Below are positions 57,224-57,524 of a DNA stretch of 64,000 bases, one piece after another. The stretch comes from a virus (taxonomy: Duplodnaviria > Heunggongvirae > Uroviricota > Caudoviricetes), in the IMG/VR virus record IMGVR_UViG_3300043406_000147. One strand, given 5' to 3'. Numbering within the stretch: position 1 is the first letter of the stretch; every line of letters begins with the position of its first letter. Under the pieces are notes generated by a model that had not been told where the DNA came from, did not search any database, and saw nothing but the letters and a program-made list of their open reading frames with translations. A program made the position numbers and the translations under genes.

Positions 57224-57524
57224 TAATCAGTAGCGCCCCTGGTAAGTAATTATCCAGGTGAAGAATCTCTCTAAACGGAGAACGTCCCTTCGTATTGGAA
57301 AAAAGCGAATGGATAACTAACCGTGCTAAGTCTGCGCTGGTCCTTAAGATCAGGCGTAGTAAAAGCCTAACGAGCATCCCGCAAGGGAGTATGGGACAAG
57401 CGTCTCAGAAACGAGAGAAACCCGACCATTCAGTTGAGGGTTGTGATGTGCTCTGTTCCACCAGTAATGAGTGGCGGGTGTCTAAGCACACCGGGTATGC
57501 CTAGCGAGCATACTGGACAGTAAG
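57224..57524 (+). ncRNA. group I self-splicing intron (no ORF) interrupting thyA
   Basis: Exon 1 ends in T and the intron ends in G (omegaG). The intron contains ATCTCTCTAAACGGAGAAC and CCGTGCTAA, which resemble the T4 td-type P3-P4 core. The reading frame resumes exactly at [18 protein letters not shown]. Confidence 0.55.

Follow-up and report, generated by a model that had tools for sequence, protein, structure and literature searches.

Here we describe an interrupted thymidylate synthase gene, thyA, in a 64,000-nucleotide (nt) stretch of viral DNA (IMG/VR record IMGVR_UViG_3300043406_000147; Caudoviricetes; hereafter the window), together with the element that interrupts it. Both lie on the plus strand. 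The first exon (56537–57223) has 229 codons, opens with a GTG start and ends in ...LSLQVYQR; it was delimited from the open reading frame (ORF) list, a PF00303 match and alignment with ThyA structures in the Protein Data Bank (PDB). The second exon (57525–57821), defined by PF00303 and a gapless junction alignment, begins SADFP and comprises 98 codons and a stop (57819–57821). Between them lies a 301-nt insert (57224–57524) without a conserved ORF, identified by matches to two covariance models (R1 and R2), by its base pairing and by covariation among sister phages. We are highly confident that it is a group I intron lacking an ORF, of the T4 td type (subgroup IA2), splitting the thyA gene of a phiKZ-like jumbo phage, the splicing of which we infer.

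Exon 1 ends in CTG CAG GTT TAT CAG CGT (LQVYQR) and runs directly into a TAA at 57224–57226; exon 2 opens with TCT GCA GAT TTT CCA GTG GGT GTT CCG TTC AAC ATC GCG. Within the active-site segment YQR/SAD, the insert separates the Arg codon from the Ser codon (the slash marks the insertion point, here and below). The PF00303 matches in the two exons abut, covering profile positions 1–179 in exon 1 (E = 1.4e-54) and 169–265 in exon 2 (E = 2.3e-32), and the joined ThyA aligns with PDB entries 6auj and 3ix6 with no gap across the junction once 57224–57524 is removed. The predicted spliced junction reads TATCAGCGT/TCTGCAGAT, also written GGTTTATCAGCGT/TCTGCAGATTTTCC. Group I introns follow a U that is held in a U.G pair before the 5′ splice site, and they end in a guanosine. 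The boundaries 57224 and 57524 were chosen because shifts of one base give the same or a synonymous mRNA but break the U or the G rule; the last base of exon 1 is T57223 and the last base of the intron G57524, as an earlier reading of the sequence (hereafter the first-pass annotation) had pointed out. That annotation also had thyA meet a stop and resume in frame 301 nt later. The coordinates, the TAA and the exons stand, but 301 is not a multiple of three and the frame is recovered only after removal of the insert.

Anatomy of the intron

The insert can be folded into a complete P1–P9.2 structure, including the P3/P7 pseudoknot, and 87 of the 87 modelled pairs are canonical in the window; the failure to adopt a P1–P9 architecture that the first-pass annotation had named as decisive against its reading was not observed. 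A minimum free energy (MFE) fold computed without family information recovers 70 of 89 model pairs, with a z-score of −2.3 for the region. At the 5′ end, P1 (57220–57236) is a 6-bp helix in which exon GCGU (57220–57223) and the intron UA pair with UAGCGC (57231–57236). It is present in the MFE fold and invariant in the sister contigs described below, as is U57223.G57233, the 5′ splice-site wobble. P2 (57238–57258) is a hairpin with a GUAA tetraloop, also found in the MFE fold, and shows an A-U to G-C double change in the sister contig L084.

In the core, the 5′ strand of P3 (UCUCUC, 57266–57271) pairs at six of six positions with its 3′ strand (GAGAGA, 57413–57418). P4, P5 and P5a occupy 57275–57324, as placed by the R2 alignment; P4 (57275–57280/57317–57324) contains an AA bulge, a 2-nt feature conserved in the family, and P5 is extended by P5a, in which L084 has a U-A to A-U change. 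P6 (GCU/AGC) and the P6a hairpin follow at 57325–57366 in the MFE fold. P6 is only 3 bp long and is assigned from folding and invariance alone. P6a is a closed 28-nt hairpin, its tip deleted or replaced in L084, at the position that holds endonuclease ORFs in T4 td, in the viral locus L015 and in others. J6/7 (CUAAC) leads into the 5′ strand of P7 (GAGCA), the two together spanning 57367–57376, and P7 pairs with 57449–57453.

Between P7 and the 3′ strand of P3 lie P7.1 (57377–57388, with a GCAA loop) and P7.2 (57392–57407), an arrangement that is the signature of IA introns; both are supported by family covariation, and a G.U pair in this segment (57377–57407) is A-U in L084. P8 (AACCC/GGGUU, with an internal loop; 57419–57442) is placed by the R1 alignment and covaries in the family, as does the following segment, the 3′ strand of P7 (UGCUC) with the 5′ strand of P9.0 (UG; 57449–57455). 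P9 (with a GUAA loop), P9.1 and P9.2 fill 57458–57514; P9 is supported by family pairing, and in L084 a U-A pair of P9.1 has become C-G and a C-G pair of P9.2 U-A. The 3′ strand of P9.0 (CA) and the terminal G57524 (omega-G) close the intron at 57518–57524, on the evidence of P9.0 covariation and td-like spacing.

Stops occur in every frame of the insert. The first of its codons is an in-frame UAA, and early in-frame stops are also found in td and in most relatives. Its only ORF, of 69 amino acids with a TTG start (57295–57504), has no Pfam match, and the frame is broken in three of the three distinct sister variants examined. The description of the intron as lacking an ORF and a homing endonuclease gene is thereby upheld.

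Kinship with the T4 td intron

The insert and the extracted T4 td intron are collinear block for block. Both interrupt a thymidylate synthase gene and share the architecture P1-P2-P3-P4-P5-P6-P7-P7.1-P7.2-P8-P9-P9.0-P9.1-P9.2; common to both are the joining segments UAAACGG, CCGUGCUAA, GCCUAACGA, GGGAGUA, GAAAC and GAU, the UAA directly after the 5′ splice site and the spacing from P9.0 to the terminal G. The aligned blocks read AAUCUCUCUAAACGGAGAAC in the window against AAUCUAUCUAAACGGGGAAC in T4 td over P3-J3/4-P4, CCGUGCUAA in both over P4′-P6, GCCUAACGAGCAUCCCGCAAGGGAGUA against GCCUAACGACUAUCCCUUUGGGGAGUA over J6/7-P7-P7.1, GAAACGAGAGA against GAAACGAUAGA over J7.2/3-P3′ and GGACAGUAAG against GAACAUAAUG over the 3′ tail. 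The likeness to the P3-P4 core of the IA introns td and nrdB that the first-pass annotation had noted is borne out: ATCTCTCTAAACGGAGAAC and CCGTGCTAA are present in the insert, where T4 td has ATCTATCTAAACGGGGAAC and CCCGTGCTAA.

Identity to T4 td in the core is only about 59–63%, with compensation in P3 and P7. P3 reads UCUCUC/GAGAGA in the window and UCUAUC/GAUAGA in td, so that both strands have changed together, and P7 reads GAGCA/UGCUC against GACUA/UAGUC, again with changes on both strands (G-C/C-G in place of C-G/U-A at two pairs). P5 and P6a are longer in the window. The T4 P6a holds the 245-codon gene for I-TevI, whereas that of the window has no ORF, and the window intron lies 21 nt (7 codons) upstream of the T4 position (QR/SADFPVG versus ..FLG/LPFN).

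IA2-type covariance models, suggested in the first-pass annotation as a check, detect the insert. Model R1 covers J6/7 to P9 and was seeded with 34 relatives including T4 td; model R2 covers J2/3 to the 5′ strand of P6; the window was excluded from both. R1 gave a single match in the 64 kb, at 57358–57478 (plus strand; full length; 75.5 bits; E = 1.5e-14); T4 nrdB, an unseeded positive control, scored 85.2 bits and T4 td 107.7 bits. The R2 match (57254–57333; 36.7 bits) lies directly upstream of the R1 match. A td-derived core pattern, CCTAACGANNNNCCCN{3,6}GGGAGTA, is present a single time in the window, where chance predicts 0 occurrences, and was found at 62 IMG/VR loci and at 44 loci in bacterial and archaeal genomes, mostly of the Bacillus cereus group; about 20 of the viral family copies are ORF-less. 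Nucleotide searches were less informative: megablast of the locus against phages returned nothing, and blastn of the insert returned only 42–54-nt patches adjoining HNH genes.

Covariation across the family supports the fold. Supplied with no structure and with a MAFFT alignment of 35 full-length or ORF-deleted members, RNAalifold predicted P3, P4, P5, P7.1, P7.2, P8, P9 and P9.2, with 35 of 46 pairs compensated by changes on both sides. MAFFT shifted the window row by one column from P7.2 to P3′, where model-based alignments were used instead, and the few broken P3 and P7.2 cells in the RNAalifold alignment are this out-of-register row. Over P7, P7.1, P7.2, P8 and P9, 59 elements were 97.5% paired, with 23/26 changed on both sides (slid controls, 31–50%), and the observed pairing values of this 3′ domain were reached in 0 of 500 shuffles. 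P4 and P5 were 96.7% paired in 50 elements (7/10 changed on both sides; slid controls, 25–50%) and P3 99.7% in 48 elements (6/6 changed on both sides; slid controls, 33–52%). In the P3 test the two strands were taken from separate alignments (5′ strand, R2; 3′ strand, R1), and neither model encodes the P3 pairing; the covariation score was 1.016, compared with 0.353 after shuffling. P7, the predicted guanosine-binding site, was 99.7% paired in 59 elements, and its first two pairs (G-C and A-U) were invariant in 59/59, including the window. Pairing reached 100% for P7.1, 98.7% for P7.2, 98% for P9 and 92.5% for P8, all six of the P8 pairs covarying. For P9.0, the base after GUCU and the fourth base of the GAANA tail are Watson–Crick partners in 32 of 35 members, with four pair types; the window pair is G57455-C57518, and the terminal G lies 6 nt beyond that C, as in T4 td.

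Introns of the td family interrupt thyA at three or more sites within 21 nt of the active-site segment (L123 being one of the loci concerned). The QR/S site of the window is also occupied in the viral loci L015/L071, in Alicyclobacillus pomorum (L092), in Bacillus spp. (L093/L095/L113), in a Thiotrichaceae metagenome-assembled genome (L091) and in Ca. Thiomargarita. A second site, about 2 nt downstream with an approximate boundary, is used by the L016 group (L016, L031, L033, L041 and L101), and a third, G/LPFNIAS, 21 nt downstream of QR/S, by T4 td and its relatives. The QR/S introns of L015/L071, L091, L092 and L093/L095/L113 belong to the same family as the window intron, follow the same point after ..TAYCAGCGT and have the same guide, ..GCGCC; the P1 design in which ..CAGCGT faces ..GCGCC is common to L015, L091, L092 and L093. 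Those of L092 and L093 are ORF-less like the window intron, whereas those of L015/L071 carry a GIY-YIG ORF. The window intron is 52–58% identical overall to L092 and L093 and about 60–64% identical to L015 in the aligned core, so that introns at its own site (52–64%) are no closer to it than introns at other sites or in other genes. Their hosts are bacteria or unrelated phages, and of these introns L092 and L093 are detected by Rfam, which misses that of the window. The intron is a new, divergent member of a well-known family, at an insertion site used by other genomes.

The introns of Bacillus phage beta22 and B. mojavensis contain endonuclease ORFs or remnants of them, and the beta22 site, which we take to lie 21 bp from that of T4, would presumably correspond to QR/S. 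These introns, in beta22 thy and in B. mojavensis thyA (I-BmoI), are cited as further known group I cases in thymidylate synthase genes (PMC5746245, PMC11620839). We found no literature report of a group I intron in the thyA gene of a jumbo phage. A published parallel by phage type is the group I intron with the HNH endonuclease gp210 in the gene for the virion RNA polymerase (vRNAP) of PhiPA3 (Birkholz et al. 2024, PMC11620839). There, too, a phiKZ-like (chimalli-) jumbo phage has the intron in a gene that is conserved and essential; the gene is a different one, and the PhiPA3 intron encodes an active HNH nicking endonuclease that serves in phage–phage competition, whereas the window intron has none.

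Other apparent comparators proved to be of a different nature. The intron of Vibrio phage pVa5 (L087 1879–3288), published as td, belongs to the same RNA family (R1, 79.8 bits); it was rejected as a same-gene comparator as it interrupts a ThyX-type gene (RHR...S...RY motifs). The ‘split’ thyA genes of Erwinia and Vibrio jumbo phages were rejected as intron cases, being in-frame protein insertions annotated as single coding sequences; such insertions, which appear as two pieces in tblastn, occur in Erwinia phages Kwan, ChrisDB and pEa_SNUABM_29 and in Vibrio phage pVp-JHP1101. Compared with solved enzymes, the window ThyA itself contains about 50 extra residues, inserted in frame at residues ~170–219 (57044–57193). 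A metagenome scan for P7 = GAGCAT yielded nothing beyond an unrelated intron without an ORF, situated in a terminase gene; family introns of this kind, ORF-less and with the same P7 (GAGCAU) as the window, lie in the terminase large-subunit gene of L085 (592–948 and downstream), L026 and L063. Multiple R1 matches place two or three family introns within a few kb of each other in the viral contigs L018, L021, L022, L026, L032, L040, L049, L058 and L059.

Sister phages and the splicing of thyA

Among 5.8 billion proteins, the closest ThyA sequences form a 229/230-residue cluster at 95% identity, which consists of exon-1 products, and the next matches are at most 49% identical; in IMG/VR no close ThyA relative was found (at most 41% identity). 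The cluster is encoded by nine sister contigs from several metagenome samples, eight of which span both exon boundaries. All eight carry an insert of 291–300 nt at the identical site, followed by an exon-2 ORF; the ninth, L079, ends within the insert. No intron-less allele was seen among the ThyA matches in the 5.8 billion proteins or in the eight site-spanning contigs. In this phage lineage the intron is fixed, and selection maintains its fold. When four distinct variants were aligned and scored on the full pseudoknotted structure, 99.1% of cells were paired, compared with 32–43% in slid controls. Double compensatory changes were found in four helices (P2, P5a, P9.1 and P9.2; n = 4) and three pairs switch between wobble and Watson–Crick. 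P1, P3, P4, P6, P7, P7.1, P8 and P9 do not vary, every core helix is intact, and the sole large change is that L084 has lost the tip of P6a.

Both exons stay open in the sisters, and the 5′ end of exon 2 offers no start codon. Sixteen of the 23 nucleotide differences from L076 in exon 2 fall at third codon positions, and third-codon-position divergence over both exons is 20–32% (for exon 1 it was taken from a gapped alignment, owing to a one-codon indel). Purifying selection thus acts on both exons and on the RNA helices. Because thyA is under selection as a whole and exon 2 has no start of its own, the insert must be removed; this selection on the exons is the strongest indirect evidence for splicing. 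Together with the collinearity, the covariance models, the covariation, the compensation among sisters and the exon junction, it bears out the first-pass proposal of a T4 td/nrdB-type group I intron that lacks an ORF.

The pre-mRNA would fold as P1–P9.2, as established for td. The internal guide UAGCGC would pair with the exon end GCGU and present the U.G wobble, and a free guanosine held in P7 would attack after U57223. P9.0 and the terminal G57524 would then bring the 3′ splice site into the same pocket, and ligation of the exons would yield a 327-residue ThyA. Ribosomes on the unspliced transcript would be expected to halt at the UAA that forms the first codon of the intron. The intron has no homing means of its own.

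Several points weigh against this reading. Catalysis and splicing in vivo are what we infer, and P10 is weak: in register it has 1 bp, and with an offset of one it has 3 bp. R2 gave a modest score. The window intron is the most divergent member sampled, with 50–66% identity to the others, and much of the family covariation comes from model-fitted alignments, a bias of which the MAFFT/RNAalifold result and the P3 test are free. Rfam 15 gave no match in the whole window at the gathering score, and the scan with RF00028 (Intron_gpI) that the first-pass annotation had proposed was negative on 57100–57650 even at E ≤ 10. This negative does not refute the intron because RF00028 also misses the proven introns T4 td and T4 nrdB; among the controls it likewise missed L075 (ORF-less) and the sister copies L076 and L084, and found the pVa5 intron (99.2 bits), the Bacillus thyA intron L093 (81.7 bits) and the Alicyclobacillus thyA intron L092 (71.2 bits). 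Its silence is a sensitivity gap of the model for td-type introns, not a property of the element.

The Rfam result, the divergence and the weak P10 would also suit a group I descendant that no longer splices, with an inactive thyA and a phage that relies on the ThyA of its host. We consider this very unlikely, as every modelled pair is canonical, the changes among sisters are compensatory or confined to peripheral loops with the core helices intact, and the exons are open with mostly third-position changes at their 20–32% divergence, which is unexpected for a pseudogene; moreover, exon 2 cannot be expressed in frame without splicing. More unlikely still, to the point of being barely credible, is a split gene in which the intervening RNA is retained and each half is translated on its own, the two products then joining as an active enzyme. 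Gene callers do annotate two ORFs in the sisters, and an in-frame GTG lies at 57540, but a start at this GTG would lose the conserved SADFP residues, no Shine–Dalgarno-like sequence was seen by eye upstream of it, and a scan for promoters of the sigma-70 type found no promoter-like site in or after the insert. A split gene would also leave unexplained a 301-nt spacer with a group I fold, homology and covariation. A group II intron, an intein and translational bypass were rejected on the size of the insert, its in-frame stops and the positive evidence for group I.

For the td-type intron reading, the importance lies mainly in annotation and cataloguing, in that gene callers split thyA, a presumably functional gene, in two and a standard Rfam scan is silent. 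Automatic (JGI) calls in the sisters L076–L084 list two ‘thymidylate synthase’ genes, of 230 amino acids and of 93 or 71 amino acids, with the intron unrecognised. The range of td-type introns is widened to the thyA gene of a deeply divergent phiKZ-like jumbo phage, and the YQR/S boundary, 21 nt away from the classic T4 position, emerges as an insertion site that recurs in both phages and bacteria. Searches for such introns could reuse the family-specific models together with the collection of about 60 relatives. The understanding of group I introns is unchanged.

Mobility and genome context

Two HNH endonuclease genes elsewhere in the window had been put forward as able to act on the intron in trans. 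Their identification holds at the level of PHROG families: the ORF at 10014–10547 matches PHROG HNH families (E = 9e-11) and that at 40253–40771 matches phrog_8048 (HNH; E = 8.5e-17), both being below Pfam thresholds. In the former, Pfam HNH_3 and NUMOD1 also match below threshold, the architecture of an I-HmuI-like homing endonuclease; on inspection by eye, the first His of its HNH motif is seemingly replaced (IRFKDGNRENLSNDNLLW). Action in trans is unsupported, the two genes lying 46.7 kb and 16.5 kb from the intron, respectively. The ORFs that neighbour thyA (55955–56512 and 57942–58892) have no Pfam or PHROG match and no nuclease signature.

Divergence of the intron is uneven among the sisters compared, L076, L080 and L084. 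Relative to L084, the window intron has 18 substitutions in 283 positions, at a third-codon-position divergence of 31.8%; relative to L076 it has 1 in 284, at 19.6%. If constraint is gauged from L084, the intron would be expected to differ from L076 by about 11 substitutions, compared with the one observed (P about 2e-4). The exon differences nearest the intron lie 24 nt upstream and 47 nt downstream. The pattern is an unproven hint of recent intron transfer with short co-conversion tracts. Mosaic recombination is an adequate alternative, because a nearby coding block (57900–58400) is equally conserved. It is possible, if unlikely, that the endonuclease-free intron is still mobile and that its exchange among sister jumbo phages, together with about 25–50 nt of flanking exon, is of later date than that of the remainder of thyA. 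If so, ORF-less introns would spread among co-infecting phiKZ-like phages by recombination through exon homology or by means of a nuclease supplied in trans.

A specific form of such mobility, in which the intron is moved by the free-standing HNH enzyme of its own phage or by the endonuclease of a co-infecting phage cutting the intron-less QR/S site, appears rather improbable to us. It would be consistent with the PHROG matches of both HNH ORFs and the HNH_3/NUMOD1 architecture of one of them, with the GIY-YIG-encoding intron that occupies the same site in L015/L071, with the closeness of the nearest exon differences and with an intron whose divergence from near sisters is 4–10 times lower than predicted from the constraint observed in L084. 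Collaborative or trans homing is documented for the ORF-less psbA intron of cyanophage S-PM2 with F-CphI and for T4 mobE with the nrdB intron (PMC3984707; PMC2790892). Those cases resemble the present one in pairing an intron that is ORF-less or has a defective ORF with free-standing HNH-type endonucleases in a phage. In them, however, the endonuclease gene adjoins the intron-bearing gene and its product cuts the insertion site, whereas the HNH genes of the window are 16–47 kb away and the immediate neighbours of thyA lack a nuclease signature. The absence of an intron-less allele among the 5.8 billion proteins searched and the equal conservation of the 57900–58400 block, which ordinary mosaic recombination could explain, also speak against this form of mobility.

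Directly upstream of thyA, a segment of about 770 nt (55700–56470) with two ORFs, 55721–55939 (72 amino acids) and 55955–56512 (185 amino acids), neither with a Pfam or PHROG match, is absent from L076, L077 and L081, where a Band_7 gene adjoins thyA. It was considered as an adjacent homing endonuclease and rejected: there are no domain matches, the AF2 model (pLDDT 48.6) was unusable and no fold search was made, and the segment boundaries point to its having been deleted from the sisters. These still contain the last ~57 nt of the 185-amino-acid ORF, which suggests loss on their side rather than a mobile gene gained here.

The jumbo phage to which the genome belongs is phiKZ-like and distant. 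Its virion protein of 992 residues shares at most 38.5% identity with those of Burkholderia phage FLC9, Ralstonia phage RP12 and Xanthomonas and Pseudomonas jumbo phages. If the phage, like its relatives, forms a phage nucleus, splicing would take place away from ribosomes, whereas that of T4 td is assisted by translation. Paralogous genes for ‘internal head proteins’ (PHROGs 2497, 5750 and 6807) form an array at 20363–26698, as is typical of phiKZ-like jumbo phages.

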